DNA of 48,240 nt from Paracoccaceae bacterium (GTDB taxonomy: Bacteria > Pseudomonadota > Alphaproteobacteria > Rhodobacterales > Rhodobacteraceae). The notes below the pieces were generated by a model. That model was not told the DNA's origin, did not search any database, and saw only the letters and a list, made by a program, of their open reading frames with translations. Below, one piece after another: positions 9,385 through 35,697 of the stretch. A program made the position numbers and the translations under genes. The DNA lies in contig DAOUQK010000001.1 of NCBI GenBank assembly GCA_030625695.1, positions 1 to 48,240 on the forward strand, read 5' to 3'. Within the stretch, counting starts at the first letter, position 1; every line of letters begins with the position of its first letter.

Positions 9385-9405
9385 GCGTTTGATGCAGGTG
9401 CAAAA

Positions 9406-9427: not shown

Positions 9428-9444
9428 CATGCGTTGTGACAATG

Positions 9445-10461: not shown

Positions 10462-10535
10462 GTTTTGCTCTCCCTGTTTCATCATGCGTTTTATCGTCTG
10501 ATTTGAGATGAAAAAGCAAATGATTTGATAAGGGA

Positions 10536-11971: not shown

Positions 11972-12915
11972 GCGCTTTTCCCCGGTTTGAATCGTTCCCA
12001 TGCCTGCATGACGATGTGGTAGATGCCCTTGGGCTGATACATGTAGAGTAACAAAGCAATGCCGCCATAGATGAAATACCGCTCGGCCCCGGGCAGATAC
12101 GGGCGCAGGTATTCCAATAGATACGTCAGGAAAAATGCGCCCACCATGGGGCCGATGATTGTGGACGATCCGCCAATCAATGCCGCCACAATGATGGTAA
12201 AGACAAAGTTGATATCAAACAGCGCGCGCGGCGCGATGGACCCGAGATAATGCACATAAAACGCGCCCCCCAGCCCGGCGACAAAGGCACCAGTAAGGAA
12301 GGCAAACAGCTTGAGGCGCGTGGTGCTGAGGCCTGAGCCCAACACTGAATCCTCGCTCATGCCAATAGCACTTAGGGCCGTGCCGACCCGTGTGCGCATC
12401 AACAACCACATGGATATTGCCACTGCCAACATCAGTGACAGGGACATGTAATAGCCGTTCACAGCGCCGCGTGTCAGCGTCTGGATGCCCGACATGCCAC
12501 GGGTGCCACCGGTCAGGTCGGGGCGGATCACCTGCACCAGCTGATAGATAAGTTCCATGAACGCCAGTGTCACCAGCGCGAAATAGCTGCCCCTGATACG
12601 CAAGGCTGGCAGGATGAACAACGTGCTGGCGATCATGGTCACGACGACGGCAATGGGGATCGAGATTTCAATCGCCACATCAAACCGCTTGGTCAGGATC
12701 GCCGTGGTATACGCACCGATGCCAATCAGGAACGGGTGACCAAAGCTGATATAGCCTGTACGCCCCGACAGAACATCCCACGAGATTGCAAAGACCGCCA
12801 GAAAGTTGGCGAATATAAACGTGCGCAGCGTGCCTTTACTGACCAGTTCGGGCATGGCGTACATCAACGCGATAAACCCGGCCCACATTGCGAAATGATA
12901 CCAACGCAGACCCAT
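11968..12915 (-). CDS. HAAT-family ABC transporter permease, LivM-like
   Basis: Polytopic membrane protein. The preferred start is ATG 12915, 1 nt after the upstream permease stop. The alternative is TTG 12936. Confidence 0.85.
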   Translation of the reverse strand: MGLRWYHFAMWAGFIALMYAMPELVSKGTLRTFIFANFLAVFAISWDVLSGRTGYISFGHPFLIGIGAYTTAILTKRFDVAIEISIPIAVVVTMIASTLFILPALRIRGSYFALVTLAFMELIYQLVQVIRPDLTGGTRGMSGIQTLTRGAVNGYYMSLSLMLAVAISMWLLMRTRVGTALSAIGMSEDSVLGSGLSTTRLKLFAFLTGAFVAGLGGAFYVHYLGSIAPRALFDINFVFTIIVAALIGGSSTIIGPMVGAFFLTYLLEYLRPYLPGAERYFIYGGIALLLYMYQPKGIYHIVMQAWERFKPGKSA

Positions 12916-12916
12916 G

Positions 12917-13768
12917 TCAAAGCTCCTCCCGGCCAAAAAGCCCTTGCGGACGGATCACCAGAACGCCGATGATCAGCACCATGGTAAACACCCCGCGCAG
13001 TTCTGGTGCGATCATGGCCGTGACGATAATCTCCATGAAACCAATGATATGCGCGACAATCAGCGTGCCTATAATGGACCCGATACCACCAACAATCACA
13101 ATCGCCACCGAGATGATCAGAGGCGCCACCCACATGCTGGGGGTCAACTGAGTGTAACTGGCGAAAAACACCCCGGCCAAAGCACCCAAAGCACCGGATA
13201 TGCCCCAGGTAATCATGTTGATCCGGTCCGAATCAATGCCCGAAATCGCCGCGCCTTTGGCGTCCATCGACACCGCTTGCATGGCCCGCCCGGTGTGGGT
13301 TTTGTTGACGAAGAAATACAGGCTGATCAGGATCGCCCAACTGACAATCGCCGCCAGTAGGTTGGAATATGGAATGGTCGCACCGGCCAATCTTTCGACC
13401 CCGGGAATAATCGGTAGCAGGATTTTGGAACTGTCACCAAACGCCAGAATGACCCCGGATTGCAGCACAATCGCCAGGATCAAAGTGGAAATCTCAATCG
13501 CCACATGGTCGCCCTTGAGCGGTTTGACGATCATCCGATACTTGGCCAAGCCCATAGCTGCGCCAACAATCACCGCCAGCAACACGCCAACCAGTTTGGG
13601 CATGCCCATCATCTGTGCGAAATAGAAATACACATAGCCGCCAATCAGCAGATACGCGCCATAAGCCAGGTTCAGAACGCGACCGATACTGAAGATCAGC
13701 GTGAACCCCATGGCAATCAGCGCATAAAGCCCGCTGAGCAAAAGCCCCTGAATAATAATCTGCGTCAT
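12917..13768 (-). CDS. HAAT-family ABC transporter permease, LivH-like
   Basis: 283 aa. MTQIIIQGLLLSGLYALIAMGFTLIFS is the typical LivH-family N-terminus. Confidence 0.9.
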   Translation of the reverse strand: MTQIIIQGLLLSGLYALIAMGFTLIFSIGRVLNLAYGAYLLIGGYVYFYFAQMMGMPKLVGVLLAVIVGAAMGLAKYRMIVKPLKGDHVAIEISTLILAIVLQSGVILAFGDSSKILLPIIPGVERLAGATIPYSNLLAAIVSWAILISLYFFVNKTHTGRAMQAVSMDAKGAAISGIDSDRINMITWGISGALGALAGVFFASYTQLTPSMWVAPLIISVAIVIVGGIGSIIGTLIVAHIIGFMEIIVTAMIAPELRGVFTMVLIIGVLVIRPQGLFGREEL

Positions 13769-13854
13769 CCGCGCCTGCCTGCCCTTGCCGTGTATCCGGC
13801 TTCAGGCCTGTCTGGCCTGAAAAACCGCGGAAATTATCTGGAATTACCTGCAAT

Positions 13855-13909
13855 CGGTCGGGCACCTGGAATGCCCGACCGGCTGGCGGCGCGACCAAGT
13901 CGCGCCGCC
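13855..13909 (-). other. Two consecutive GC-rich intercistronic hairpins between the SBP and permease genes
   Basis: CGGTCGGGCA-cctggaa-TGCCCGACCG (13855-13881) and GGCGGCGCGAC-caa-GTCGCGCCGCC (13885-13909). No T-tract follows. They lie directly downstream of the SBP stop on the transcribed strand. Confidence 0.6.
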
Positions 13910-13918
13910 TGGGTTGGT

Positions 13919-15202
13919 TTACTTCTTGACCCAGCTGGGCAGAACAAACTCACCTGTTTTGAACTTGTCAGGATAGACAACGGCGTTTGTGCCGTCTTCA
14001 TACCACTGGATCACCACCATCGAAGGCGCGCCTTCGTCATAAGGCTCGGTGATGTCAAAACGGATGTTGTGCGGATAGGCCCGGCCGGTGCGCGGCTCAA
14101 TCTCGTCATTGCCCCACCAGCCCCAACGCAGCCACATTTCGCCGTCTTTCTTAAAGATATCGTCCTGCTTTTCCATCGCAGGAACCCAGGCATCAAGTTC
14201 AAACCCGCCAGCCTCTTCGGCAGCGGCCATTGCCTGCTTCAACCCGTGATAGGCGTTATAGCCGTTGAAATGCGGGATCGAGGGCCGTGTATCGTAACGT
14301 GCCTGATATTGCGCAAGGAACTCGGCATTGACCGGGTCCAGCGCAAAGCCAAGCGACGGCACCGGCGACAAGGTCGAGATGCCACCACCGGCACCACCTG
14401 TGTCTTCCCAGAACTCATGACCAAGGGCCGCGACATTGACGCCGGTCATGCCCATCGGCACTTGCAGTTTCACATATTGGCTGGAAACCACCTGAGAGTT
14501 GACGGATGAGACGAGATAGATGAAATCCGCGCCCGAGGCTTCGGCTTTGGCGAATATCGGCGCGAAATCATTGGTGGTGATGTCAAACGAAATGATTTCT
14601 GTCACGTCTATGCCGGCATTGGGTGCCAGTGCTTCGGTCACAAGGCCGGTGATCGCGCCGCCAAAGGCAGTGTCTTCGGCCAAAATGACCACCGAGTCCC
14701 AGCCCATCTTTTCCTTAAGAACGTCTTTGCCAAAGTCGATGTAAAGCGTGGCAAGGGCCTCGTCCGAGGCAATGTTCATGAAATAGGGCCGCATCGAATC
14801 ATAATCATCGACAATCATGTCGATGATGCCCACATACGACGTCCATGTATCCAAAGTCGGGATCTGGAATTCCTGCATTCTCGGCAGCCAACCCAAGCTT
14901 ACATCGTCAATCGAGCCGGAAATGATAAAGTCGACCTCTTCGGTCTCGGCCAGAAATTCATAAGCTTTGACGCCTTCGGTCACGTCCTCGCCGGTGTCGG
15001 CCTTGACCAATACAATCTGTTGACCAAGAACGCCGCCTTTGGCGTTCAACTCGTCAATCGCCATCTCGGCACCGCGCAAGGTGCTAAGGCCGGTGTCGGA
15101 TGAAAGCGAGCCGATAAAGCCCACCTTGATCTCGGCTGATGCGGCTGTGGCCATCAGGGCCATGGCCCCCAAAAGCGCAGCACTATTTCTTAGAATTGTC
15201 AT
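13919..15202 (-). CDS. Liv-type (Peripla_BP_6-like) ABC transporter substrate-binding protein, ligand unknown
   Basis: ORF 13919..15289. The preferred start is ATG 15202, with a GGGGGAAATA Shine-Dalgarno sequence upstream. MTILRNSAALLGAMALMATAASA is a signal peptide. The mature part begins EIKVGFIGSLSSDTG. At 427 aa it is longer than a typical LivJ. Confidence 0.85.
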   Translation of the reverse strand: MTILRNSAALLGAMALMATAASAEIKVGFIGSLSSDTGLSTLRGAEMAIDELNAKGGVLGQQIVLVKADTGEDVTEGVKAYEFLAETEEVDFIISGSIDDVSLGWLPRMQEFQIPTLDTWTSYVGIIDMIVDDYDSMRPYFMNIASDEALATLYIDFGKDVLKEKMGWDSVVILAEDTAFGGAITGLVTEALAPNAGIDVTEIISFDITTNDFAPIFAKAEASGADFIYLVSSVNSQVVSSQYVKLQVPMGMTGVNVAALGHEFWEDTGGAGGGISTLSPVPSLGFALDPVNAEFLAQYQARYDTRPSIPHFNGYNAYHGLKQAMAAAEEAGGFELDAWVPAMEKQDDIFKKDGEMWLRWGWWGNDEIEPRTGRAYPHNIRFDITEPYDEGAPSMVVIQWYEDGTNAVVYPDKFKTGEFVLPSWVKK

Positions 15203-15243
15203 TATTTCCCCCTGTTTTGTTGGTTCGATATCTTTTTCGTATC

Positions 15244-15277
15244 CTGTATACAGTACACGAAGGCGGTATTCTGTCAA
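15244..15277 (-). promoter_or_regulatory. Operator/promoter A upstream of the Liv-type transporter genes
   Basis: Palindrome CTGTATACAG (15244-15253); TGTATACAGTA is identical to sites B and C. On the minus strand a -35-like TTGACA (15272-15277) lies 16 nt upstream of TACTGT, which overlaps the palindrome. Confidence 0.55.
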
Positions 15278-15344
15278 CAAGCCTAGCACCTTGGGCCTTC
15301 GAATGCTTGGGAAATCCCATTTGCCGGCTGTGCGGCTTTAGTGG

Positions 15345-15758
15345 TCAGTCAAATTCAATCACGCCTTGTGGGTCGTGAATAATTGCATCGACAGATATTT
15401 CCACCATCATTCCGGGGGTTGTCAGCCCAGCCTCGACCGCCGTTGTGACTGGTAAAATGCCGTCGAACACTTCGCCATGGGCTTTGACAAATCCAGCCGC
15501 TGCGGCCTGCATATCCGAAAGAAACACGGTCGTTCGCACCACATGGCGCATGTCCGCGCCCACCTCTTTCAACGCGTCATCAATCCGCTTTAACGCGAAT
15601 ATTGTCTGCGCATACGCATCATTTGGCGCATGCAGCTTACCGCTTGGTTCTATCGCCGTGGTGCCGGCCACAAACACAAACGGGCCAACCCGCTTGGCCC
15701 GCGCATACGATCCGATTTCTTCAAACCGCCCGCCGGACTGGACAATCCGCAGGGTCAT
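15345..15758 (-). CDS. RidA/YjgF-family (reactive enamine/imine deaminase-like) protein; last gene of the BMC operon
   Basis: 137 aa. Its length and motifs (VFVAGTTAI, VVRTTVFL, VEISVDAI) fit the YjgF/RidA fold. An ATGA overlap joins it to the upstream MDH-like gene. Confidence 0.8.
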   Translation of the reverse strand: MTLRIVQSGGRFEEIGSYARAKRVGPFVFVAGTTAIEPSGKLHAPNDAYAQTIFALKRIDDALKEVGADMRHVVRTTVFLSDMQAAAAGFVKAHGEVFDGILPVTTAVEAGLTTPGMMVEISVDAIIHDPQGVIEFD

Positions 15759-16942
15759 TTCAGGCCCAAACGGACACGAATCGCATCGGCGGCAGCATGC
15801 AGGGCGGCGTGTTCGGTATCGGTAAGGGTCAGTTGTTCCACCTTCACCAGCCCGCTTTGACCCAGATGGGCGGGGACGCCCAGAACCACGCCGTTGACGC
15901 CAAATTCTCCTTCCAACATGACCGATACAGGCACCGGGCCGGTCCGCGCCCCGCGAATATGATCCAGCAATTCGACCGAAGAATGCGCCGGTGCAATCGT
16001 CGCCGACCCGGTCTTGCGCAAGGCAACAACCTGTCCGCCACCAGTGATCGCGTCCTTCACGCAGGCGTCAATCTGCTCTTGCGTAAGGTATATATCCAAC
16101 GGTCGCCCCTTGATGCGCGCATGCGACGGGATTGGCGCCATTTCATCGCCGTGGCTGCCCAGAGTAAACGCAGATACATCGCCCGGATTAACCCCGGCGG
16201 CCTGCGCCAAAGCATTACGGAACCGCGAGGAATCCAGCGTCCCGGCCATGCCCAAAACCCGTTCGCGGGGAAACCCCGTGGCGCGCAGCATTTCGACCGT
16301 CATTTCGTCCAGGGGGTTGGTCACCACAATCACAATCGCCCCGGGGGCCTGCGATTTGATCGCTTCGGCGGTGGAATGGATCACCCGCTTGTTGGTCTCG
16401 ATCAGGTCGGCCCGGGTCATCCCCGGACCGCGGGCGCGCCCCGCTGTCACCACAATGACCTCGGCTCCCGACACCATGTTCAGTGATGTGCCGCCAGTGA
16501 CCCGCGCACGGGTTCGGGTGATGCCGCTGGCGTGGTTGAGGTCCAGCGCGGTCGCTTCGGCGACGCCGGGTGCGATATCAATCAGGGCTATTTCATCGGC
16601 GATATCGGTATTGGCGGCAAGGTGGGCAATGTTGCTGCCAACGCCGCCCGCGCCAACCAGCGCGATTTTACTGAACCGTCTGGCACTTGGGGCTGGTTGT
16701 TTGCCGGGTGCCACCCATTTTGGCGATCGGCGGTAAAGGGCGCGGCGCATTGAGGTGGCACCATCGCTGCGCGCGGGCGTCGGCATTTCCAACGGCCCGT
16801 CCAGCAGTTTGATGCCATTACGTGCCGCCGTCTCAACCGCCAATGCGGTGACGATATCACCGGGTAAGACTTCGAACACCAGACGTCCACGCTGGCGCGC
16901 GTCCTCGATCAATTCCGAGCCTATGACACGCGGTTTGGCCAC
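15755..16942 (-). CDS. LDH-type malate/lactate dehydrogenase paralogue with a roughly 90-aa N-terminal extension
   Basis: Residues from about 92 show KIALVGAGGVGSNIAHL (Rossmann fold), DIAPGVAEATALDLNH and VVTAGRARGPGMTRADL, with Arg at the specificity position as in MDHs. They also show VTNPLDEMT, GMAGTLDSSRFR and LGSHGDEM (catalytic His). Residues 1-91 have no MDH/LDH counterpart. Confidence 0.8.
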   Translation of the reverse strand: MAKPRVIGSELIEDARQRGRLVFEVLPGDIVTALAVETAARNGIKLLDGPLEMPTPARSDGATSMRRALYRRSPKWVAPGKQPAPSARRFSKIALVGAGGVGSNIAHLAANTDIADEIALIDIAPGVAEATALDLNHASGITRTRARVTGGTSLNMVSGAEVIVVTAGRARGPGMTRADLIETNKRVIHSTAEAIKSQAPGAIVIVVTNPLDEMTVEMLRATGFPRERVLGMAGTLDSSRFRNALAQAAGVNPGDVSAFTLGSHGDEMAPIPSHARIKGRPLDIYLTQEQIDACVKDAITGGGQVVALRKTGSATIAPAHSSVELLDHIRGARTGPVPVSVMLEGEFGVNGVVLGVPAHLGQSGLVKVEQLTLTDTEHAALHAAADAIRVRLGLK

Positions 16943-17569
16943 TTAGGCGGCCTTTCCGTCGACCGCTTCAATCGCCGCCACCGCGGCGTCCATCCCGGCC
17001 TTGACTGAATCTTCTGAGCCGGAAATGAACAGGCGGCCATAGCGCCCCACCGCGCGGACCTCGACGATATCGATTTCCGAGGCCTTTTCGGCCTCATTCG
17101 CGGCGATAGAGATATAGGCCGCCGGGGCGCATTCGATGATACCAAGCGTCTGGCCCGGGACCAACAACGCACCCTTGCGCCATTTGTTAAGCAATTGCGC
17201 CTGATAGGGTTCGACCGAAGTGATGATCTGGGTGGTGCCGATATGCGGCTTGATCCGGTCGGCCATGGTAGCACCAAGTTCGTCCAGTATGGCATCCCTT
17301 GCGGCAGACACTTCGGCGTTTGACCGCGAACGAAGGATGAAGAACCCGAATTCCCGTTCCACTAATTGCGTCGTTGCCTCAACCGAACTGGCCTTTAGCG
17401 CCCGGTCAATCAGGGTGAACACACCGTTGCCGGGGGCAAATTCGCCGATCAGCACCGTGTCGCCCGAGAGCGGAACCGAGCCTTGCACGGTCGCGCCGTT
17501 ATAGGCGGCGAACTTGGGCTGCAGATTGTCGATCTGCATCAGGGCACGGATGATTATGTCGCTGCTCAT
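16943..17569 (-). CDS. BMC-T shell protein (tandem, EutL/PduB-like permuted BMC domains)
   Basis: 208 aa, consisting of two BMC-fold halves. The second half, TQIITSVEPYQAQLL...GIIECAPAAYISIAANEAEKASEIDIVEVRAVGRYGRLFISGSEDSVKAGMDAAVAAIE, parallels the EutL pattern (...[23 protein letters not shown]...FLTGSQAA...). Its stop abuts the next start. Confidence 0.8.
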   Translation of the reverse strand: MSSDIIIRALMQIDNLQPKFAAYNGATVQGSVPLSGDTVLIGEFAPGNGVFTLIDRALKASSVEATTQLVEREFGFFILRSRSNAEVSAARDAILDELGATMADRIKPHIGTTQIITSVEPYQAQLLNKWRKGALLVPGQTLGIIECAPAAYISIAANEAEKASEIDIVEVRAVGRYGRLFISGSEDSVKAGMDAAVAAIEAVDGKAA

Positions 17570-17572
17570 GGG

Positions 17573-18955
17573 TTATTCTCCGCCATATTCTTTGTAGATG
17601 TCGCGCCAGGGTCGGCTTTCATACGCCACCCGCTTGATATTGATCAGATGCAGGGCGGTGACATTGTCCGAGGTGATCGACCCCGACCAGGTGCCCGTGC
17701 CCAGCATGAAACTTGGTTCCAGATCGGTGGAATACCCCATGCCGCCCAGGATGCCGGGTGTGTTGACCAGAACGCGCCCCGTCGGCACGGAGGAAAATTG
17801 CGCAACAATTGACGGGTCGTCCGCGTGGATCACCGAGGAATGGCCCCAACCTTCGAATTTCGCGATGTTATGGGCAATCTCGATACCTTGATCGCTGTCA
17901 CGGGCCTCATAGAACGCCAATACCGGGTTCAGCTTTTCGGCTGAAAGGGGCCGGTGCCAGCCAATCTCGCTCTCCTCCGAAACCAGACAGCGGGTCCGGG
18001 GCGGGATTGAAAACCCGGCTGCGTCTGCCAGTGCCTGAGGCGATTGGCCGACGCGCTCGGGGTTCATCGCTTGCCGACCGTTAAAGATAACCTTAGCCAG
18101 ACGATCTGCCTCGGCAGGGGTGCAGAAATACGCACCCTTTAGTTTTAATTCATGGCGCAAATCACGGGCAATTTCACGGTCGGCAATAACCGCCTGTTCC
18201 GAAACGCAGGCCGTGCCATAGTCGAACGCCTTGGACATGACGATCATTTCAGCGACTTCACCTATGTCGTCCTTCTTGGACTTGTGAACATAACACGGCA
18301 CATTGCCGGCCCCTACGGCCAGTGTCGGTTTGCCCGAGGAATAGGCCGCCTTGACCATCGCCGGGCCACCCGTCGCCATGACCACCGAAGTGCGCCGGTG
18401 GCGCATTAACTCAGCCGTGCCTTGGATTGTCACCTCTTCCAGACATTGGATCAGCCCCTTGGGCGCACCCATTTGTTCGGCCACGTCGGCCATGATGCGT
18501 ACGGTTTCAATGCCACAGCGCACGCCGCGCGGGTGTGGCGCGCAAACAATGGCATTGCCGGCCTTTACCGCTGACAAAACCTTGAAAATGATGGTTGATG
18601 TAGGGTTGGTCACCGGCACCAAGGCGGCAACCACGCCCATCGGTTCGCCAAAGGCGGCGACTTTGGTGGCCTCATCGCTCCATAACATGCCCAACGTGGT
18701 CACATCACGCAGGTAATCCGCCACTGACAAAGCGTTGAACAGGTTTTTGACCCGCTTGTCTTCGACATTGCCGTATCCGGTTTCTTCCACCGCCAATTGA
18801 CCCAAGCGCAGCGCTTCTGGCTCAACGGCGCGGGCCATGGCATCAACAATGGCATCAACTTGTTTGGGGTCCGTGCCCAGAAACGCGCGGTATGCCTCAA
18901 ACGCGCTTTCGGCGCAGCGACGCGCGGCGGCGATTGATTTCAGGTCTGCGTCCAT
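17573..18955 (-). CDS. CoA-acylating aldehyde dehydrogenase (stand-alone AdhE-N-terminal type)
   Basis: 460 aa. By my recollection of the AdhE sequence it aligns from residue 1 with the aldehyde-dehydrogenase half of AdhE. Shared motifs are QLAVEETGYGNVEDK, PVTNPTST, GAGNVPCYV, FDYGTACVSEQ (catalytic Cys) and HLINIKRVA. Confidence 0.85.
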   Translation of the reverse strand: MDADLKSIAAARRCAESAFEAYRAFLGTDPKQVDAIVDAMARAVEPEALRLGQLAVEETGYGNVEDKRVKNLFNALSVADYLRDVTTLGMLWSDEATKVAAFGEPMGVVAALVPVTNPTSTIIFKVLSAVKAGNAIVCAPHPRGVRCGIETVRIMADVAEQMGAPKGLIQCLEEVTIQGTAELMRHRRTSVVMATGGPAMVKAAYSSGKPTLAVGAGNVPCYVHKSKKDDIGEVAEMIVMSKAFDYGTACVSEQAVIADREIARDLRHELKLKGAYFCTPAEADRLAKVIFNGRQAMNPERVGQSPQALADAAGFSIPPRTRCLVSEESEIGWHRPLSAEKLNPVLAFYEARDSDQGIEIAHNIAKFEGWGHSSVIHADDPSIVAQFSSVPTGRVLVNTPGILGGMGYSTDLEPSFMLGTGTWSGSITSDNVTALHLINIKRVAYESRPWRDIYKEYGGE

Positions 18956-20148
18956 TACCGTGTCCCTGCTGCAATTGCGTCCATCACCCTGCGGGCGCTG
19001 TCGATGTCACTGGCTTCGATACCGATAGTTTCAAGGCGCCGACCTGCGGCGGCGACATCCGCGCCCAAAATGCTGGACGCCAATGTGACCATCGACTGCG
19101 TTACCGGCACGTCAACGCCTGCCAGCTTCGCGGCAGAGATCAGCGGCACAAACGACCCGATCACCCCGTCGCGCATAAGAGTATTCGCGGCCTTCTGATC
19201 AGGGATACCTCGCGCGCCCGCGCCGCGTAGCGCGCCTGCGTGGATCCGCACCCAAGCGTCCGTATCCGGCAAGTTTCGCAGGCCAAAGGCCTGCGCCACC
19301 AAACGCCGTTCCTGCGCCAGACGATTAATCACCGCCCTGTGCTGTGTCCCAATAAGCGAAGCGAACGTTGCATTTTCATCCAATGCCACCCCGCCCATCG
19401 GCACAGGCGCGCCAGCGCCTTCCAACCCCGGACCGCCCAACAGCAAAGCAGGCAATTCCACCAAGGCAGAGCCGTCGGCAAAGCCGCTTTCCAACACCGA
19501 TGCCTGTTCTACCAGATCCGGTAAATACCGCGCCAACCCGCGCAATACGTCCGAGCGCCCGCGCGGCAAGGTCGCGGCAGCGACCGGGCCAACAGCGGAA
19601 AGCGTCAGTGTCGCGCCGGTTTCGGAGATCCAATACGGCAAGCCTTGGGCTTCGACCAAAGTGATATCCGCCGTACAACCACCGATGCGTAACATCCAGG
19701 CGGCCTCAAGCGCGCCCAGCGAGCGCCCCGGGGCCAGAACCAACACCTGACCATCTTGCAGATGATCCGCCAGAACCATCGCATAGGTGCGCATTTTGTG
19801 CACCGGACCGGTCAGGAAAATCACATCGGCCTTGGCCACCGCTCCGTCCAGTTCCGCCGTGGTACGAATAGAAGGCCCCGCGTCGCGATCCACCGCATAG
19901 GTGCCAACCGGCCCGTCGCCGCGAATGGTCACGCCGCTTGAGGCGCGCAACATCTGCACCTCGGCGCCGTAGGCCGAAAACAACGTTACATCCGCGCCCT
20001 CGGCCAGGCACAACGCCGCCAAAAGACGCCCTTCGACCCCGCCGCCAAGCACTGCGACACGGGACAATTCTGGCGCGTTTATCGCCACCCTTGTCCCGCC
20101 GCTTACTTTAGCAACCGCTTCTGTGAATTCCTCAAATCCGCCAGCCAT
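18955..20148 (-). CDS. Opine (octopine/nopaline) dehydrogenase-family-like NAD(P) oxidoreductase with an N-terminal amphipathic extension
   Basis: 397 aa. RVAVLGGGVEGRLLAALCLAEGADVTLF is a Rossmann fold. The middle and C-terminal region (LAPGRSLGALE, ...ENATFASLIGTQHRAVINRLAQERRLVAQAFGL...) resembles the Octopine_DH domain. The family call rests on motif recollection only. Confidence 0.55.
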   Translation of the reverse strand: MAGGFEEFTEAVAKVSGGTRVAINAPELSRVAVLGGGVEGRLLAALCLAEGADVTLFSAYGAEVQMLRASSGVTIRGDGPVGTYAVDRDAGPSIRTTAELDGAVAKADVIFLTGPVHKMRTYAMVLADHLQDGQVLVLAPGRSLGALEAAWMLRIGGCTADITLVEAQGLPYWISETGATLTLSAVGPVAAATLPRGRSDVLRGLARYLPDLVEQASVLESGFADGSALVELPALLLGGPGLEGAGAPVPMGGVALDENATFASLIGTQHRAVINRLAQERRLVAQAFGLRNLPDTDAWVRIHAGALRGAGARGIPDQKAANTLMRDGVIGSFVPLISAAKLAGVDVPVTQSMVTLASSILGADVAAAGRRLETIGIEASDIDSARRVMDAIAAGTR

Positions 20149-20165
20149 GGACCCGTCCCCTTAGC

Positions 20166-20474
20166 CTAGTCCGCAGACCCGGACCCTAGTGCGTCGAGAA
20201 TGCCTTCAAGTTCATCATGTGGCCGTGCGATCACGTGCACCGATACTACATCGCCGATCTTGTTGGCGGCTGTGGCCCCGGCATCGGTCGCCGCCTTCAC
20301 CGCCCCGACTTCACCGCGCACCAGCGTGGTGATCAGACCGCCGCCGGCTTTGGTTTGGCCCAGAATTGTCACGCTGGCCGCTTTGACCATCGCATCCGCC
20401 GCCTCGATCGAGGCGACGAGGCCACGGGTTTCGATCATTCCAAGGGCCATCTGGCCCGCTGCTGGTTTTGCCAT
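20166..20474 (-). CDS. BMC-H shell protein (hexamer, PduA/EutM-like)
   Basis: 102 aa: [77 protein letters not shown]. This is a near-canonical BMC domain. The edge Lys (AMVK) and the RPH Arg are present, and the pore loop is KAGGGL as in EutM. Confidence 0.95.
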
Positions 20475-20494
20475 GTCTTAAGTCCTTCTATAGG

Positions 20495-20770
20495 TTATTT
20501 TTTCTTTGATATCGTAATGTGTTCAACGATTGCGATGATGCATGCATCAATCGGCACCCCGGCCAGCCCGGCGGGCAGACGCGCACCAGAACCGGTCACG
20601 ATCATCACAGTATCGCCAACGCCAGCACCGCAGGTATCAGCCGCCACCACCGACGGCTCCAACACTTTGCCGGACCCGTCAATAATGTCGCATAACAACA
20701 GCTTATGACCGGTCAGTTGGGCTTCTTTGGCCGTCGCTGTGACCGTGCCGATGACTTTTGCCACTCGCAT
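20495..20770 (-). CDS. BMC-P vertex protein (pentamer, EutN/CcmL/PduN family)
   Basis: 91 aa: MRVAKVIGTVTATAKEAQLTGHKLLLCDIID...AADTCGAGVGDTVMIVTGSGAR...PIDACIIAIVEHI. It parallels EutN (MKLAVVTGQIVCTV...KLLMVEMID...GAGTGEWVLLVSGSSAR). Its start shares nt 20770 with the stop of the GS-like gene. Confidence 0.9.
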   Translation of the reverse strand: MRVAKVIGTVTATAKEAQLTGHKLLLCDIIDGSGKVLEPSVVAADTCGAGVGDTVMIVTGSGARLPAGLAGVPIDACIIAIVEHITISKKK

Positions 20771-22065
20771 TAGAAATTATCCCGATAACGGTCGATTTCC
20801 ACCTGCGTCACTTGCTGGGAAAAGAACTCCAACTCGCGTTCGCTCTGCTGGCAGGCCAGTTCCCACATGTCGTCGCCCATCACGCCCCTGAGCCAGTCCG
20901 ACCCTCGCGCCAATGCAATGGCGTCGCGCAGGTCAGTGGGGATGGGGGCGGCATCTTCGACCTCGTAGCCATTGCCGGTGGTCATCTCAGAAGGTTCAAT
21001 GCCCTGTTCGATGCCGTCAAGACCGGCGGCAATATCACTTGCCAACAGGAAATACGGATTGCAATCGGCCCCTGCATCGCGCTTTTCCACCCGAACGGCG
21101 CTGTCATTACCTTCAATCACCCGCAGGCCAACGGTGCGGTTATCCAGCCCCCAGGTCGTGTTGATCGGACAGAAGGTATATGGCTGGCGGCGACGATAGC
21201 CGTTGACCGTGGCACTGCCGCAAATCGAGGCTTCGGCCATGCGTTTCTGCATGCCGCCAACAAAATGACGGCCCGTTTGGTTCAACTTGCCATTGTCGGC
21301 AAAGACGTTCTTGCCGTCTTTCCATAGCGAATAGTGGCAGTGAAACCCGTTGCCGGAATCCTCATAAAACGGCTTGGCCATAAAGGTCGCTTTATAGCCA
21401 TGCGCGCCTGCCAGTTGTTTGACCAGGGAACGGAACATCACCACCCGGTCCGCCGACAGTAACGCCTCGTCGAAGCGTACATTCACTTCGACCTGGCCGG
21501 CCGCGTATTCCGGGTTTGATTGCTCAATCGGAATGCCACATTCGTTGATCTGGGTGCGGATTGGGCCAAGCACATGTTCAAGCTCTGCCGCCCTCTCAAG
21601 CCCATAAACCTGAATGCCGGAATCCCTCGGTTTGCCGGTTTCGGGATCAAGCAGATAGAATTCCAATTCGGTCCCGACCTGAACCTCAAACCCCATGTCA
21701 GCCGCGCGTTTCACCTGACGCTCAAGCATTGGGCGCGGGTCAATCGGTACTTGCTTGTGATTCATCCCCTCGGCGCGGGCAAAACACATGGCCACGCCCG
21801 GCTCCCACGGCAGGGCGACCGGTTTGGTCATCGGGAACATGTGCATGTCGGGATAACCGTTGTCGAAATTGACATACGGCGTGTCCCAGACGTCGCAGGT
21901 CATATCAATGGCGAAAAGGGCGAGCGAGTAGGCATTGCCATTATTGCAAATGTTCTCCCAATGGCTGGCCGGAATACGCTTGCCGCGCATAATGCCGTTC
22001 AGGTCTCCAAGGCCCAGAATTACCGTATGTGTTCCCTCGGGTAACGTGAAATCAGTTGACGTCAA
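20770..22065 (-). CDS. Glutamine-synthetase-family enzyme (candidate gamma-glutamyl-amine synthetase, GmaS/PuuA-like); first gene of the BMC operon
   Basis: GS catalytic motifs are present: GTELEFYLL, NPEYAAGQVEVN, ATFMAKP, GNGFHCHYSLW, NGYRRR, WGLDNRTVGLRV, RVEKRDAGADCNPYF. The track start at 22080 is a TTG sitting inside a GGGAGG Shine-Dalgarno sequence. I prefer the TTG at 22065, 7 nt after that sequence, but the start remains uncertain. Confidence 0.85.
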   Translation of the reverse strand: MTSTDFTLPEGTHTVILGLGDLNGIMRGKRIPASHWENICNNGNAYSLALFAIDMTCDVWDTPYVNFDNGYPDMHMFPMTKPVALPWEPGVAMCFARAEGMNHKQVPIDPRPMLERQVKRAADMGFEVQVGTELEFYLLDPETGKPRDSGIQVYGLERAAELEHVLGPIRTQINECGIPIEQSNPEYAAGQVEVNVRFDEALLSADRVVMFRSLVKQLAGAHGYKATFMAKPFYEDSGNGFHCHYSLWKDGKNVFADNGKLNQTGRHFVGGMQKRMAEASICGSATVNGYRRRQPYTFCPINTTWGLDNRTVGLRVIEGNDSAVRVEKRDAGADCNPYFLLASDIAAGLDGIEQGIEPSEMTTGNGYEVEDAAPIPTDLRDAIALARGSDWLRGVMGDDMWELACQQSERELEFFSQQVTQVEIDRYRDNF

Positions 22066-22103
22066 GATGCAACCTCCCAATTGCTTATGGTCTTGCGTTT
22101 AGT

Positions 22104-22138
22104 TGTATTCTGTATACAGTATTCAAAAATACAGTCAA
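22104..22138. promoter_or_regulatory. Operator/promoter B in the divergent region between the BMC operon and the flavoenzyme gene
   Basis: Tandem heptads TGTATTC-TGTATAC-AGTATTC (22104-22124) contain the palindrome CTGTATACAG (22110-22119). On the minus strand a -35-like TTGACT (22133-22138) lies 16 nt upstream of TATACA (22111-22116). Confidence 0.55.
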
Positions 22139-22169
22139 CAGCACCAAAACGACAAGGACGATTTTGATC

Positions 22170-23309
22170 ATGGCACCCAGCAACATCATTGTCGTGGGCG
22201 GTGGTATTGCCGGTACGATGACGGCGCTTGAACTTCAGCGCAAGGGTGAACAGGTGACGCTGATCGACCGGTGGGAACCGGGGCATTCGCGGGCCTCTTC
22301 AACCGATTACAACCGGGTGATCCGGGCGATTTCCGGACGGGACGAATTCTATACCAAATGGGCGCGGGAAAGCCGGTTGCGGTGGTTGGAACTTCAGGCC
22401 GAAAGTGGCCAGAATCTGATGTATGAATGCGGTGCTTTGATCCTGGCCACCGAGGGCCATTGCGATTGGGAAGACGCGACAAGTCAGACCTTCGACAAGC
22501 TTGGCGTGCCTTATTACAAGTATTCGCAGTCGGAAATTCAGCAAAGATTTCCCCAGTTTCGCGTGCCCGACATCGGCTATGCCCTGTTCGAACCCGAGGC
22601 GGGCATGCTGATGGCGCACCGCTGTGTTCTGACCGGGATCGACCTGTTCAAACGCGCGGGCGGCGTGGTGAAACGGGGCCGCGTGACCACCGATGGGTCC
22701 GAGCGGCCGATGCTGGATGGCAAGCTGCTTGAGGCGGATGTTATCATCATCGCCACTGGCCCGTGGATGTCAGATATGTTCCCGCGCACCATTAAGCCGA
22801 TCACCACAGTGATTGGTGTCAATGTGATCTATACCTCGACCCCCGACGGGTCGGACGCATTTGACATGGAAAACATGCCCTGCTGGATTGATCATGGGCG
22901 TAGTTCGTTTGGCCTGCCGTCGTCCGAAGGGTCGGGCGTCAAGGCGGCTGTGGTTATCCCTGACAAGATCGACCTTGATAACGACGAACGCCTGATCCGG
23001 CGTGAATGTCTAAGCCGCACCCGCAGTTATATCGAACACCGCTTCCCGGGGTTGGTGGGCGAAAAGGTGGTAGATTCCAAGTTCAACCAGATCATCCTGA
23101 CGCCAGATACGCATTTCATTGTCGACTGGCACCCCGAGCATGACAATGTTCTTTTCGCGGGGGGCTGTTCCGGGCATCTGTTCAAACACGCGCCCGTATT
23201 CGGCAGCTTTGTGGCCGGGGTCGCGGTTGGGGACTATGGCACGGCCGACCGGTTCAAGGTTGCCAACCGACGCAAACTTAGCCCGAAAGAAAGCCCGTCA
23301 GGACGATAA
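22170..23309 (+). CDS. Monomeric sarcosine-oxidase-like (MSOX/DAO family) FAD-dependent secondary-amine oxidoreductase
   Basis: ORF 22056..23309. The preferred start is ATG 22170, with an AAGGA Shine-Dalgarno sequence upstream. MAPSNIIVVGGGIAGTMTALEL is a GxGxxG motif. GHSRASSTDYNRVIR...RLRWLELQ matches the MSOX/SolA pattern. GGCSGHLFK resembles the region carrying the covalent-flavin Cys in MSOX-type enzymes; that point is tentative. Confidence 0.8.
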   Translation: MAPSNIIVVGGGIAGTMTALELQRKGEQVTLIDRWEPGHSRASSTDYNRVIRAISGRDEFYTKWARESRLRWLELQAESGQNLMYECGALILATEGHCDWEDATSQTFDKLGVPYYKYSQSEIQQRFPQFRVPDIGYALFEPEAGMLMAHRCVLTGIDLFKRAGGVVKRGRVTTDGSERPMLDGKLLEADVIIIATGPWMSDMFPRTIKPITTVIGVNVIYTSTPDGSDAFDMENMPCWIDHGRSSFGLPSSEGSGVKAAVVIPDKIDLDNDERLIRRECLSRTRSYIEHRFPGLVGEKVVDSKFNQIILTPDTHFIVDWHPEHDNVLFAGGCSGHLFKHAPVFGSFVAGVAVGDYGTADRFKVANRRKLSPKESPSGR

Positions 23310-23639
23310 ATCGGCGTAATGTGCCGCGTTCGGGCAGTCATAAGGATCAAACGCGCCTTCATTTCCGGCCAGAAATGCTTTGCATTCCTTGGACTTTTCA
23401 CAGGTTGTACAGGCTAGGACAATCTCTAACGCGCGCCAGCGGGTGGCGTCGATAACTTTGCCGGTGACGCCGAAATGTGCTGCCATCGCCTCCATCTGGT
23501 TACGCACCCCGGGGCGGGCATTGGCAAATGTTGCAATGTCTTCGCGCGATACGGACAGATCGGCGCAAAGCCGGTCGAGTTCCTGCGATGTCAGAATCCT
23601 TTTACGGGCCCTGTCAAACAACCCTAGTAATCCAGTCAT
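23298..23639 (-). CDS. Small Cys-motif protein (DUF6455-like), function unknown
   Basis: 113 aa with a strong AGGAGG Shine-Dalgarno sequence 9 nt upstream. C-x2-C-x5-C-x2-FL...CPN (CTTCEKSKECKAFLAGNEGAFDPYDCPN) matches my recollection of DUF6455 proteins of Rhodobacterales. Its 3' end overlaps the convergent flavoenzyme gene by 12 bp. Confidence 0.6.
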   Translation of the reverse strand: MTGLLGLFDRARKRILTSQELDRLCADLSVSREDIATFANARPGVRNQMEAMAAHFGVTGKVIDATRWRALEIVLACTTCEKSKECKAFLAGNEGAFDPYDCPNAAHYADLSS

Positions 23640-23698
23640 GCGGCTATCCTCCTGATTGCGACGCTAAAGTCTGAAAGACTGCAAGACTTTGAGGCAGA

Positions 23699-24391
23699 TC
23701 AATTTACCGGCGCGCCACGCAGTAATTTAGCCGCTTCCTTGGCCATCAGATCAACCAGCACGTCGCCAGAAACGACAGACGCCAGCCGGTCTTTGGTCTC
23801 GACAGGGGATTGTTGATCGCCTGCGTTTTTTTCAATCGCATGAGTAATAAATGCGCGGGTGAATTCCGGGTGGAATTGCACCGACATGGCCGGGAAATCA
23901 TAGGCCAGAACGCCAAACGGACAATAATCAGCACCGCCCAGAACCCTGGCCCCGGGTGGTACTTTTATCACCTGATCGCGGTGCCAGACATGGGCATCAA
24001 CGTCTTTCCCGTTCACCTTAAAGCGCCGCACGCCAACCACTTCGCCCAAACCGGCCAGTTCTGCCTTGCCGCCATAAACCTCGGCCATGAATTGATGAGC
24101 GAAACAGATACCGAAAACCGGAGCCGCCTGCGCCTTTGCTTCCAGCAAGAAGGTGCGCAAACGCCCCAACCAAGGCATATCATCATAAACGCCCTTCTCG
24201 GACCCACTCAGTACAAATCCGTCAAAATCGCCAACCTGCGGCACCGGCGTGCCAGCCGTTACTTCGATCACCGTCAGTTCATCACCCGGCATCGCCGGGG
24301 CCAGCCATTCGCGGATTGTGCGGCCTACGTGTTTGCCGCCGCCGATGTCTTCGGGCAGGTCGGTCAGGTTCAGGATGGCAATCCTTACCAA
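23699..24391 (-). CDS. Class I glutamine amidotransferase-fold protein (candidate gamma-glutamyl-amide hydrolase)
   Basis: 230 aa. The nucleophile elbow GICFAHQ and the His/Glu pair in QFHPE are present. The TTG start overlaps the upstream stop (GATTGGTAA). Confidence 0.8.
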   Translation of the reverse strand: MVRIAILNLTDLPEDIGGGKHVGRTIREWLAPAMPGDELTVIEVTAGTPVPQVGDFDGFVLSGSEKGVYDDMPWLGRLRTFLLEAKAQAAPVFGICFAHQFMAEVYGGKAELAGLGEVVGVRRFKVNGKDVDAHVWHRDQVIKVPPGARVLGGADYCPFGVLAYDFPAMSVQFHPEFTRAFITHAIEKNAGDQQSPVETKDRLASVVSGDVLVDLMAKEAAKLLRGAPVN

Positions 24392-25806
24392 TCGAACACC
24401 CGGTCAATTCCGGCCATCTTGACGCCAGTAAAGGCTGATGCCTGAAACGACAGCGCGCGCAGGTCTTCGACCTCAAGATTATGCACCGAAGACTTGCCGC
24501 AGGCCTTGGCCAGCGCCGTCATCTCCATGGTCATCGCCGTCAGATACCGCGCCACCCGCTCGGCCCCCGCCGCCGGATTCATGCGTTTTTCCAACTCAGG
24601 ATCCTGCGTTGCAATTCCCACCGGGCAACGCCCGGTATGGCAATGGTGACACGCGCCCGGAGAGGTTCCAAGCGCCTCATAATCCTCAAGATAGCGCGGT
24701 GAATTACACCCCGCCGCAATCATCGCGCCATTGCCGATCATCACTGCATCGGCACCCAGTGCGATGCACTTGGCCGCGTCCACTCCGGTGCGGATACCGC
24801 CCGCAACCACCAGCGTTACCTTGCCCGACATGCCACAGTCATCCAGTGCTTCGCGGCCCGCGCGAATGGCGCTCATGGTTGGCACACCGGTATGGTTCAA
24901 CAGCATCTCGGGCGACGCACCTGTGCCACCTTCGGCCCCATCCAGAACCACCACATCCGCACCCGCCTTGGCCGCAACGGCCACGTCGAACCGGGGGCGG
25001 GTCGCGCCCATCTTGATAAAGATCGGCACCTGGTAATTGGTGGCAATACGTAGTTCTTCGATCTTGACCGCAAGGTCGTCGGCACCCAGGAAATCCGGGT
25101 GACGGATGGTTGATCTTTGATCAACCCCTTCTGGCAAGGTGCGCATTTCAGACACCCTCGGGCTGACCTTCATGCCCAACAGCAAGCCGCCAGTGCCGGG
25201 CTTGGCCCCTTGCCCTACAACAATCTCAATCCCGTCGGCGCGGCGCAGATGGTCCAGATCAACGCCATAACGCGCCGGGGACATCTGATAGACCAGCCGT
25301 TGCGAGGCTTCGCGCTCTTCCTCAAGCATCCCGCCTTCGCCAGTGCAGGTCATTGTGCCCGCTTTGGACGCGCCATAGCCCAAAGACGCCTTGGCTGACG
25401 CCGACAACGCACCAAACGACATCGACGCGATATAGATCGGGATTTTCAACTCGATCGGCTTTTCAACCAAGCCACGTCCACCGCCCAAAATGGTCGTGGT
25501 ATCGCAGGTTTCGCGGTATCCTTCCAACGGCAACCGCGTCATGGTGGCCGGCACAAAGGTCAGATCATCAAACGTCGGCAATTGCTGGTTGAACGAGTTA
25601 TAGCCGCGCACCTGGTAGCGGCCCAATTGCGCCAATGCGTGCACTTCGGCAATCGAATCCGGGTCCCAGCGGGCCGAACCACCCTTGGCATATGATGCGG
25701 GCACCCCGGCGGGGCGGCCCTCAACAGCACCGTCACCAAATTTGATCTCGGCCTCATCGGCCATTTCGAACGGGTATTCATACGGTTTGTTCAGATCATG
25801 AGCCAT
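24385..25806 (-). CDS. FMN-binding glutamate-synthase-domain protein (GlxD/MgsC-like)
   Basis: 473 aa. ASMSFGALS, VVGQGAKPGTGG, VVLDGAEGGTGASP and VVAGGIRTG are hallmarks of the GltS FMN domain. A CHHCHTGRCPVG Cys cluster is also present. Confidence 0.9.
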   Translation of the reverse strand: MAHDLNKPYEYPFEMADEAEIKFGDGAVEGRPAGVPASYAKGGSARWDPDSIAEVHALAQLGRYQVRGYNSFNQQLPTFDDLTFVPATMTRLPLEGYRETCDTTTILGGGRGLVEKPIELKIPIYIASMSFGALSASAKASLGYGASKAGTMTCTGEGGMLEEEREASQRLVYQMSPARYGVDLDHLRRADGIEIVVGQGAKPGTGGLLLGMKVSPRVSEMRTLPEGVDQRSTIRHPDFLGADDLAVKIEELRIATNYQVPIFIKMGATRPRFDVAVAAKAGADVVVLDGAEGGTGASPEMLLNHTGVPTMSAIRAGREALDDCGMSGKVTLVVAGGIRTGVDAAKCIALGADAVMIGNGAMIAAGCNSPRYLEDYEALGTSPGACHHCHTGRCPVGIATQDPELEKRMNPAAGAERVARYLTAMTMEMTALAKACGKSSVHNLEVEDLRALSFQASAFTGVKMAGIDRVFDW

Positions 25807-27424: not shown

Positions 27425-27445
27425 GACATTCCCCTCGAAAGTGTT

Positions 27446-27478
27446 TGTATACAGTATACCGTATTCACTTAAGTTCAA
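27446..27478. promoter_or_regulatory. Operator/promoter C between the GlxBCD-like operon and the GntR gene
   Basis: Tandem heptads TGTATAC-AGTATAC-CGTATTC (27446-27466) contain TGTATACAGTA. On the minus strand a -35-like TTGAAC (27473-27478) lies 16 nt upstream of TACTGT. Extra ATACAG half-sites sit at 27522-27536. Confidence 0.55.
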
Positions 27479-27579
27479 GGCGATTCTTAACAACCTGCTT
27501 TATTGTACTCTGGATTCAGGATACAGAAATACAGAAGACTCTGCAAATTCATGCGCAAATTCACGACAAGAGGCCCGCA

Positions 27580-31200: not shown

Positions 31201-31233
31201 GCTCAAAGTCCTCCGAACTCCTTCAATTGTTAC

Positions 31234-33028: not shown

Positions 33029-33033
33029 ACGGG

Positions 33034-35696: not shown

Positions 35697-35697
35697 G

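Follow-up and report, generated by a model that had tools for sequence, protein, structure and literature searches.

A MIC2-type bacterial microcompartment locus of a Paracoccaceae bacterium and its possible link to small-amine catabolism

MIC2 is one of several catalogued bacterial microcompartment (BMC) types without an assigned substrate or NAD+ regeneration—a question that was still open in 2024 (PMC11626177). The type was defined from 22 loci in Acidithiobacillia, Alphaproteobacteria, Gammaproteobacteria, and two Actinobacteria (Sutter et al. 2021, Nat Commun 12:3809, Supplementary Data 2, PMC8217296). The catalogue entry lists an aldehyde dehydrogenase (AldDh) without encapsulation peptide; a glutamine synthetase (GS) of pfam00120; a lactate/malate dehydrogenase (LDH/MDH) of pfam02866 with an N-terminal extension of ~70 amino acids (aa) found only in BMC loci; and a protein of the 6PGDH-like superfamily with a short N-terminal helical encapsulation peptide (PMC8217296). 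The same entry names no MIC2 substrate (PMC8217296), and a literature search found no functional study of MIC2 or of a roseobacter microcompartment beyond the catalogues. Here, we describe a locus from a Paracoccaceae bacterium (assembly GCA_030625695.1, contig DAOUQK010000001.1, positions 1 to 48,240 of the forward strand; this whole stretch of 48,240 nt is referred to as the window) that almost certainly belongs to the MIC2 type. The locus type itself is therefore already catalogued; added here are an extended regulon, a shared operator, and a testable hypothesis on amines.

Two further metabolosome types are close to this locus. MIC1 of the Actinobacteria (Axen et al. 2014; Sutter et al. 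2021) features the closest AldDh clade, which also has no encapsulation peptide, an LDH/MDH-family enzyme with the same kind of N-terminal domain, and a double-stacking tandem-domain shell trimer (BMC-Tdp). Unlike the present locus, MIC1 has two hexameric shell proteins (BMC-H) and a zinc alcohol dehydrogenase according to its descriptions, which list neither a GS-like protein nor one resembling opine dehydrogenases (opine-DH). RMM1, or AAUM, of Mycobacterium and Rhodococcus is an amine-catabolizing metabolosome for aminoacetone/1-amino-2-propanol, and its AldDh is the next closest in the catalogue and the nearest characterized relative of the AldDh found here. It shares with our locus the incomplete enzyme core, a GntR regulator, an amino-acid-type permease, and BMC-Tdp. 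However, the aldehyde of RMM1 is generated by a kinase, a class-III aminotransferase-type phospholyase, and a short-chain dehydrogenase/reductase, none of which is present in the window; GS-like, Mgs-like, oxidase, and opine-DH-like enzymes occur instead.

The shell operon of the window consists of eight minus-strand genes arranged head to tail at 15345–22080. In the order of transcription, these are:

20770–22065, minus strand: glutamine-synthetase-family (GS-like) ligase, first gene of the shell operon (PF00120, 305 bits)
20495–20770, minus strand: BMC-P pentamer (vertex) shell protein (PF03319, 89 bits)
20166–20474, minus strand: BMC-H hexamer shell protein (PF00936, 89.6 bits; EutM model, 117 bits)
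18955–20148, minus strand: opine-dehydrogenase-fold NAD(P) enzyme of 397 aa, candidate lumenal signature enzyme (family profile and structure model)
17573–18955, minus strand: CoA-acylating aldehyde dehydrogenase (AldDh), metabolosome core enzyme (TIGR02518, 507 bits)
16943–17569, minus strand: BMC-Tdp tandem-domain trimer (BMC-T), CcmP/CsoS1D-like and double-stacking, 208 aa (CcmP model, 201 bits)
15755–16942, minus strand: LDH-like, malate-dehydrogenase-type enzyme (MDH-like) and candidate NAD+ recycler, its N-terminus extended by a conserved stretch of ~90 aa (PF00056/PF02866)
15345–15758, minus strand: RidA-family imine/enamine deaminase (PF01042, 84 bits)

An initial annotation, made from the DNA letters, had proposed these eight open reading frames (ORFs), and all of them were located at the coordinates that it gave. 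The tight junctions that it described are likewise present: stop and start codons overlap by 1 nt at 20770 and at 18955, a stop at 16943 abuts a start at 16942, and an ATGA overlap occupies 15755–15758. For the GS-like gene, the proposed start at 22080 is probably not the right one; translation more likely begins at a TTG at 22065 that is preceded by GGAGG, a Shine-Dalgarno sequence. Matches to PF00120, PF03319, PF00936, PF00171, PF00056/PF02866, and PF01042 all lie above the curated Pfam cut-offs. For the 397-aa protein, the assignment to PF02317 falls below the cut-off (23 versus 30 bits), and its opine-DH fold is supported by a family profile and a structure model instead.

The features by which the catalogue defines MIC2 are all found here: an extended MDH, a 6PGDH-like protein with a peptide-like helix, a GS-family member, and an AldDh without encapsulation peptide. 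MIC2 is further defined by the lack of a phosphotransacylase and an alcohol dehydrogenase, and neither a phosphotransacylase (PduL, Pta) nor an iron-dependent alcohol dehydrogenase occurs among the ORFs of the 48-kb window scanned against Pfam. Ruegeria sp. ANG-R, a catalogued MIC2 member whose BMC-P carries the MIC2 label in the catalogue trees (PMC8217296), has a locus colinear with the window, and the proteins are 89% (AldDh), 89% (BMC-T), and 88% (BMC-H) identical. In its core, the locus does not differ from MIC2. The catalogue text on MIC2, in contrast, is without the flavoenzyme, RidA, mgsABC-like genes, transporter, and GntR regulator, all of which are conserved parts here. The initial annotation had presented the locus as matching no functionally characterized BMC type. 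This stands insofar as no type with an established substrate was found to match, whereas comparison with the 2021 catalogue removes its novelty as a locus type. The same Pfam scan of window ORFs agrees with the absences that had been noted: EutBC, PduCDE, glycyl-radical enzyme, RuBisCO, carbonic anhydrase, the aminotransferase/kinase set, aldolase, PduL, and iron-dependent alcohol dehydrogenase were not found. Identities as EUT, PDU, GRM, RMM, PVM/ACI, or carboxysome were rejected on the same basis, no signature enzyme of theirs being among the scanned ORFs.

The shell set comprises one protein of each class and is matched by the EutM, CcmL, and CcmP models of NCBIfam. Pfam and NCBIfam scores support the view that BMC-H and BMC-P together with BMC-T form a complete minimal shell set accompanied by an acylating AldDh. 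BMC-T scores PF00936 at 42.3 bits. It had been called EutL-like, which is incorrect: the CcmP model reaches 201 bits and the EutL model 22 bits. Since its orthologues also carry PF27545 (CsoS1D_N) together with PF00936, BMC-T is assigned to the BMC-Tdp group. Across Alpha- and Gammaproteobacteria, the shell genes are colinear and 48–97% identical, and they are translationally coupled to enzyme genes.

The AldDh scores PF00171 at 84 bits and belongs by NCBIfam to the acetylating EutE/AdhE type; its closest solved structures are acetylating acetaldehyde dehydrogenases (Protein Data Bank (PDB) entry 5j78, 433 bits). Cys250 in the motif FDYGTACVSEQ is invariant (80/80 orthologues). The protein aligns almost end to end with solved enzymes and carries no encapsulation peptide. 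These similarities probably point to a C2–C3 aldehyde, that is, to a substrate of the ethylamine, ethanolamine, propylamine, or aminopropanol type. AldDh orthologues are also on record from Planktomarina temperata, an abundant coastal species.

Opine dehydrogenases use NAD(P) to form and to cleave N-(carboxyalkyl) secondary amines. The family profile of the 397-aa protein matches CENDH (PDB 1BG6) over its full length with an E-value of 4e-53. An AlphaFold2 model (pLDDT 81.5, pTM 0.82) retrieves opine dehydrogenases as all ten of its best PDB matches in Foldseek, 1BG6 among them with a TM-score of 0.82. Hence, the two-domain fold of CENDH and octopine dehydrogenase is found here, whereas the catalytic His202 is not. 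In the model, the N-terminus features a helix at residues 3–14 followed by a disordered linker, and F5 and F8 of this helix are conserved among orthologues. This is the usual form of an encapsulation peptide, and the enzyme is probably lumenal as judged by the model. Family members share three invariant arginines (R281, R291, and R370), of which at least R291 is unmatched when the protein is aligned with CENDH.

The MDH-like enzyme scores 123 and 81 bits with PF00056 and PF02866, respectively, and aligns with the malate dehydrogenase 4plh (242 bits) over residues 91–389. The predicted catalytic residues R177, D237, R240, and H264 correspond to Arg109, Asp168, Arg171, and His195 and show no variation among the orthologues (75/75). 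The same holds for R171 (75/75), the equivalent of the Arg102 that specifies oxaloacetate. The N-terminal extension comprises 93–97 aa in most orthologues and carries conserved motifs. It has no Pfam or PDB sequence match, and a database search returned orthologue fragments only; the EutQ/cupin likeness remarked on in the catalogue was not reproduced in the Pfam and PDB sequence searches.

The conserved system is larger than the eight-gene operon of the initial annotation. It extends over ~17.7 kb and additionally includes a flavoenzyme, an ABC transporter, mgsABC-like genes, and a GntR regulator, which appear co-regulated. The additional parts and the operator-like sites are:

10536–15202, minus strand: five-gene Liv/Urt-type ABC importer (Pfam Peripla_BP_6, two BPD_transp_2, two ABC_tran), with the substrate-binding protein at 13919–15202, two permeases at 11968–13768, and two ATPases at 10536–12001
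15244–15253: operator-like palindrome CTGTATACAG, 42–51 nt upstream of the start of the importer binding protein
22110–22119: operator-like palindrome CTGTATACAG, between the divergent oxidase and GS-like genes
22170–23309, plus strand: FAD-dependent oxidase of the monomeric sarcosine oxidase/N-methyltryptophan oxidase family, 379 aa (PF01266, 142 bits)
23298–23639, minus strand: small Cys-rich DUF6455 protein, accessory (PF20056, 28 bits)
23699–24391, minus strand: stand-alone class-I glutamine-amidotransferase-type hydrolase, candidate gamma-glutamyl-amide hydrolase, accessory (PF00117)
24385–25806, minus strand: mgsC-like subunit with FMN glutamate-synthase domain (PF01645, 327 bits)
25791–26483, minus strand: mgsB-like GXGXG subunit (PF01493)
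26480–27424, minus strand: mgsA-like class-II (Ntn) amidotransferase subunit (Pfam GATase_6/7)
27445–27454: operator-like palindrome TTGTATACAG, in the GntR/mgsA-like intergenic region
27580–28242, plus strand: GntR/FCD-family regulator of 220 aa from ATG 27580, divergent from the mgsA-like gene (Pfam GntR and FCD)

To judge conservation, peptides conserved in the opine-DH-like protein were used to scan 185,579 species-representative genomes; an alignment of 10 sequences served for this, a 27-sequence alignment being too divergent. The scan yielded 186 stretches that encode an opine-DH-like relative—so that MIC2 is far commoner than the 22 examples of 2021—and the best 80 of these 186 loci were retrieved. 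They come from Paracoccaceae/Rhodobacteraceae, Rhizobiaceae (Hoeflea, Nitratireductor, Ahrensia), and other Hyphomicrobiales, with gammaproteobacterial carriers in Granulosicoccaceae, Halioglobus, and Chromatiales; all retrieved carriers are marine. The nearest relative, a metagenome-assembled genome of Rhodobacteraceae (L003), shows 81–98% protein identity over the whole region. A search for synteny had been suggested earlier, and the colinear core was indeed recovered in other Rhodobacterales and beyond: in 70 of the 70 loci that cover these genes, the order GS-like, BMC-P, BMC-H, opine-DH-like, AldDh, BMC-T, MDH-like, RidA is kept, and the divergent FAD oxidase lies directly upstream of the GS-like gene. 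The RidA gene is present in the loci that reach past the MDH-like gene, its position varying in divergent ones. The five-gene importer follows RidA in 54/59 loci. Of 62 loci, 44 carry the mgsABC-like genes upstream and 31 the class-I hydrolase, and 39 of the 62 with enough upstream sequence have the GntR/FCD regulator adjacent. No further recurrent gene families were found in the locus flanks, and loci without adjacent mgsABC-like genes feature unrelated upstream DNA, such as a transposase or a two-component system.

In divergent loci, in which the opine-DH-like protein is 31–42% identical, the GntR, mgsABC-like, oxidase, GS-like, and RidA genes recur in shuffled order; one of them (L084) has GntR-mgsABC after RidA. 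In two others (L085 and L089), a gene for an APC amino-acid permease is found close to the core. Extra genes that are not present in the locus of the window are found at L085 3343–5309 (the APC amino-acid permease, a DUF3156 protein, and an amidase) and at L086 1005–1445 (a GGACT-family, gamma-glutamyl-cyclotransferase-like gene). As judged by their families, these are further hints of gamma-glutamyl-amine intermediates. Opine-DH-like relatives down to an E-value of ~5e-29 always lie beside shell genes in the contexts inspected with enough flank. For the next relative sampled (E-value 7e-25), the neighbors are a B12-binding protein and an aldo-keto reductase, and shell genes are missing. The boundary of the BMC-linked clade is sharp.

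GntR-family regulators bind inverted repeats of the kind found here. The 10-bp palindrome CTGTATACAG occurs three times in the window with at most one mismatch, compared with 0.21 expected, and each promoter region holds one copy. Across 82 loci, 209 of 239 occurrences fall in the same three intergenic regions: between the oxidase and GS-like genes in 70/77 loci, before the importer in 53/60, and between the GntR and mgsA-like genes in 41/42 (at most one mismatch). Related sites persist in the divergent L084 and L085. The palindrome is likely the operator of the GntR regulator, as suggested by its placement. Since it is shared, the shell operon would form one regulon with the mgsABC operon, oxidase, and importer at 10536–28242 (~17.7 kb). 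A shared operator is not mentioned in the text of the Sutter et al. 2021 catalogue that deals with this type. The window contains no Rfam families and hence no riboswitches of that collection, and scans with simple promoter and terminator consensus sequences remained at background level.

The GS-like ligase is, by its similarities, probably a gamma-glutamyl-amine synthetase. It does not reach the NCBIfam cut-offs of GlnA proper, type III GS, or gamma-glutamylputrescine synthetase, and a role as a true glutamine synthetase was rejected because the score is far below the cut-off of the GlnA model. The GmaS model TIGR03105 gives 237 bits (cut-off 470) and the PuuA (gamma-glutamylputrescine synthetase) model 196 bits (cut-off 650). 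The nearest solved structure is 5DM3 of Chromohalobacter salexigens (216 bits), followed at a distance by the GmaS structures 7cql and 9qur (132–141 bits). We take 5DM3 to be Csal_0679, the neighbor of the ethanolamine-binding Csal_0678. Enzymes of the GmaS type accept ethylamine and propylamine besides methylamine (PMC7948447).

The FAD oxidase starts at ATG 22170 and is transcribed divergently from the shell operon. It resembles monomeric sarcosine oxidase of the PDB (E-value 6e-34) and scores 190 bits with the NCBIfam model of N-methyl-L-tryptophan oxidase. Such enzymes oxidize the N-alkyl carbon of N-substituted amino acids and release the amino acid and an aldehyde. The C-terminus (23235–23309) features a strongly conserved, Pro-rich, non-helical tail, DRFK..R.KLSP.ESPSGR, which could be a shell-docking motif. 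The ORF of the DUF6455 protein overlaps the 3' end of the oxidase gene convergently and occurs in a minority of related loci. The MgsABC architecture is found at the level of domains only: an Ntn amidotransferase that begins with Met-Cys-Gly-Ile and thus keeps the N-terminal Cys nucleophile (Cys1), a GXGXG subunit, and an FMN subunit; the mgsC-like protein is 79–96% identical across loci. The class-I hydrolase carries GICFAHQ and FHPE motifs, and an orthologue gives a faint Peptidase_C26 match; its identity as a PuuD-like hydrolase is uncertain, and its role would be accessory only. For the binding protein of the importer, no informative solved relative was found.

The N-methylglutamate pathway of methylamine catabolism (GmaS, MgsABC, MgdABCD) is a close parallel for these neighbors. 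Like the locus, it features a GS-family amine ligase, a three-subunit complex of the Mgs type, and a sarcosine-oxidase-related enzyme, which in the pathway acts on N-substituted glutamate. In contrast to it, the ligase of the locus is not a GmaS orthologue, and the oxidase is monomeric rather than the four-subunit MgdABCD. The canonical pathway, in turn, involves neither a shell nor an acylating AldDh, and neither an opine-DH-like nor an MDH-like enzyme. Three independent families, Mgs-like, sarcosine-oxidase-like, and opine-DH-like, converge on N-substituted amino acids and are accompanied by a GS-family ligase, RidA, and importers, and for this reason an alkylamine version of an N-methylglutamate-type pathway is proposed. 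We consider a link to amines and gamma-glutamyl or N-substituted-glutamate compounds reasonably probable. The fuller proposal of a MIC2-type metabolosome set within a GntR-controlled regulon for small-amine catabolism is more tentative and falls somewhat short of probable, and the individual enzyme roles, including NAD+ recycling by the MDH-like enzyme, are doubtful.

In this proposal, the Liv-type ABC transporter would import the amine, a task that the APC amino-acid permease near the core might take in some divergent loci, and the GS-like ligase would convert it to a gamma-glutamyl-amide at the expense of ATP. The MgsABC-like complex would then turn the amide into an N-substituted glutamate, following the logic of the N-methylglutamate pathway. 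Steps up to this point and the next one rest on family membership and conserved linkage. Oxidative cleavage of the secondary amine would yield glutamate and an aldehyde, with RidA hydrolyzing the imine. Candidates for this cleavage, both from families known to act on this type of bond, are the opine-DH-fold enzyme, which bears the peptide-like helix and is probably lumenal, and the sarcosine-oxidase-like flavoenzyme, which bears no such peptide. Within the shell, AldDh would oxidize the aldehyde to an acyl-CoA, probably a C2–C3 acyl. The MDH-like enzyme may reoxidize the NADH on oxaloacetate or a similar 2-oxo-dicarboxylate, so that a malate/oxaloacetate shuttle would take the place of the missing alcohol dehydrogenase. 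Because a phosphotransacylase is missing as well, the acyl-CoA would be exported from the shell, perhaps through the gated pore of BMC-Tdp.

Several points weigh against this proposal. Observed are gene families, linkage, the operator, and catalytic residues, from which we infer the chemistry of every step, and the part of the MDH-like enzyme in NAD+ recycling is likewise an inference; a 2024 PNAS paper with authors of the catalogue holds that MIC2 lacks a known NAD+ regeneration system (PMC11626177). The assignment of the aldehyde-forming step is ambiguous: the oxidase belongs to the right family but carries neither a helical extension nor an encapsulation peptide, and the opine-DH-like enzyme, though probably lumenal, shows an altered active site, so that either could be the aldehyde former. 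If the oxidase released the aldehyde in the cytosol, the shell would be pointless. In the opine-DH-like enzyme, Glu231 aligns with the catalytic His202 of CENDH, and this Glu is found in 84/87 family members; its chemistry may differ from that of classical opine dehydrogenases. After the opine dehydrogenases, the model also matches ketopantoate and mandelate reductases. Because of the Glu in place of the catalytic His and this likeness to reductases, the enzyme may not cleave secondary amines at all. The mgsABC-like genes are not adjacent in 18/62 loci, although they may lie elsewhere in those genomes. Moreover, compared with a minimal pathway, the scheme has a surplus of NAD-linked and secondary-amine enzymes, with one dehydrogenase too many, and therefore at least one role is misassigned.

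Other readings of the same gene set account for parts of it. A diamine or an amino alcohol might be handled in a manner resembling the Puu pathway: gamma-glutamylation would protect one nitrogen, the flavoenzyme or the opine-DH-like enzyme would oxidize the other end, the shell would hold a gamma-glutamyl-amino-aldehyde for oxidation by AldDh, and the class-I hydrolase, an amidase, or a GGACT protein would remove the glutamyl group. The combination of a GS-like ligase, a DAO-family oxidase, an aldehyde dehydrogenase, and a class-I amidotransferase-type hydrolase indeed follows the PuuA/B/C/D pattern, the best solved match of the ligase (5DM3) presumably stems from an ethanolamine context, amidase and GGACT genes occur in divergent loci, and the large gated pore of BMC-Tdp could pass bulky gamma-glutamyl compounds. 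Pathways of this kind for ethanolamine (Phaeobacter sp. MED193, Chromohalobacter salexigens, GlnA4 of Streptomyces) and the Puu pathway share with the locus an ATP-dependent gamma-glutamylation as the first step, an aldehyde intermediate next, and an optional amidohydrolase, and the gamma-glutamyl ethanolamine pathway of the roseobacter Phaeobacter sp. MED193 operates without a BMC (PMC10132767). However, these pathways use non-acylating aldehyde dehydrogenases and TRAP or other transporters and have neither a shell nor mgsABC-like genes. The tests for Puu orthologues were negative: the ligase reaches 196 of the 650 bits set for PuuA, the AldDh, which is of the CoA-acylating acetaldehyde type, 32 of 850 bits for PuuC, and the best model of the oxidase is N-methyltryptophan oxidase, whose clade, together with sarcosine oxidase, acts on secondary amines. 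Since the hydrolase is present in just 31/62 loci and the mgsABC-like genes, which stay linked to the locus even with shuffled order, would be left with no role, this route is unlikely. Slightly less credence is given to the catabolism of an imported N-(carboxyalkyl) amino acid, for instance one of the marine opines alanopine, strombine, tauropine, and octopine, in which the opine-DH-like enzyme, the flavoenzyme, or both would cleave the opine, RidA would clear the imine, the shell would process an aldehyde or keto acid, and the GS-like and Mgs-like proteins would handle the freed nitrogen. The opine-DH fold of the 397-aa enzyme, the amino-acid type of the importers, and the marine origin of all carriers, some genera of which are tied to invertebrates or algae, agree with such a substrate, and the opine oxidases of Agrobacterium are DAO-family flavoenzymes. 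Yet the replacement of the catalytic His by Glu speaks against opine cleavage; the reaction would yield a keto acid and an amino acid rather than an aldehyde, which leaves the acylating AldDh and the shell unexplained; and no clear role would remain for the mgsABC-like genes or for the GS-like gene, which is always linked and is coupled in translation.

It is very improbable that the locus encodes a methylamine/formaldehyde organelle, in which the GS-like ligase, the MgsABC-like complex, and the oxidase would generate formaldehyde that the shell confines and AldDh converts to formyl-CoA. At the level of domains, this trio corresponds to GmaS, MgsABC, and N-methylglutamate dehydrogenase, formaldehyde is toxic, and a DmmA-like gene lies ~18 kb beyond the regulon. 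The ligase, however, is nearer to 5DM3 than to the GmaS structures and stays well below the TIGR03105 cut-off, the oxidase is devoid of an encapsulation peptide, and we know of no physiological precedent for formyl-CoA formation by such AldDhs; the canonical pathway passes formaldehyde to tetrahydrofolate and needs no shell. Least credible of all is a relic or scaffold whose shell genes no longer build an organelle, leaving the enzymes free in the cytosol. In favor of this reading, literature searches yielded no transmission electron microscopy or expression record for any MIC2 carrier, but shell genes that remain colinear over two proteobacterial classes and coupled in translation to the enzymes, the retention of all three shell classes for a closed shell, and the conserved encapsulation-peptide-like features argue against it.

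Should the proposed alkylamine route via N-substituted glutamate apply, microcompartments would be linked to the turnover of marine dissolved organic nitrogen, and an encapsulated MDH would, if real, answer how metabolosomes with an incomplete core balance their redox cofactors. In its strongest form—MIC2 as an amine-degrading organelle of marine Alpha- and Gammaproteobacteria and the first microcompartment fed by gamma-glutamyl/N-substituted-glutamate chemistry (an alkylamine GS-GOGAT), with the opine-DH-fold enzyme as a new class of lumenal signature enzyme that sets the aldehyde free and an encapsulated MDH shuttle—the proposal is rather unlikely to be right.

The remainder of the window contains further genes for transport and nitrogen compounds. 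Directly downstream of the Liv-type importer, a second ABC transporter at 6272–10485 consists of an SBP_bac_6 binding protein, a TOBE-domain ATPase, and a fused permease of 669 aa; as L003 alone has a counterpart of this binding protein, the transporter probably does not belong to the system. In the region 518–6107, a DeoR regulator and a TRAP transporter accompany a DAO-family oxidoreductase that carries a BFD-like [2Fe-2S] domain; these genes were judged unrelated to the BMC regulon. The DmmA-like gene at 46086–47036 encodes a ferredoxin-reductase-type protein whose N-terminal domain resembles the dimethylamine monooxygenase subunit family; the gene lies close to the end of the window and may be part of a cluster for methylated amines that is cut there. 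On the plus strand, 30193–38363 carries an NMT1-type ABC transporter, a 5'-nucleotidase-like phosphoesterase, a creatininase-family amidohydrolase, an amidohydrolase, and an FAD_binding_4 oxidase, a cluster that possibly serves the catabolism of a nitrogen compound.

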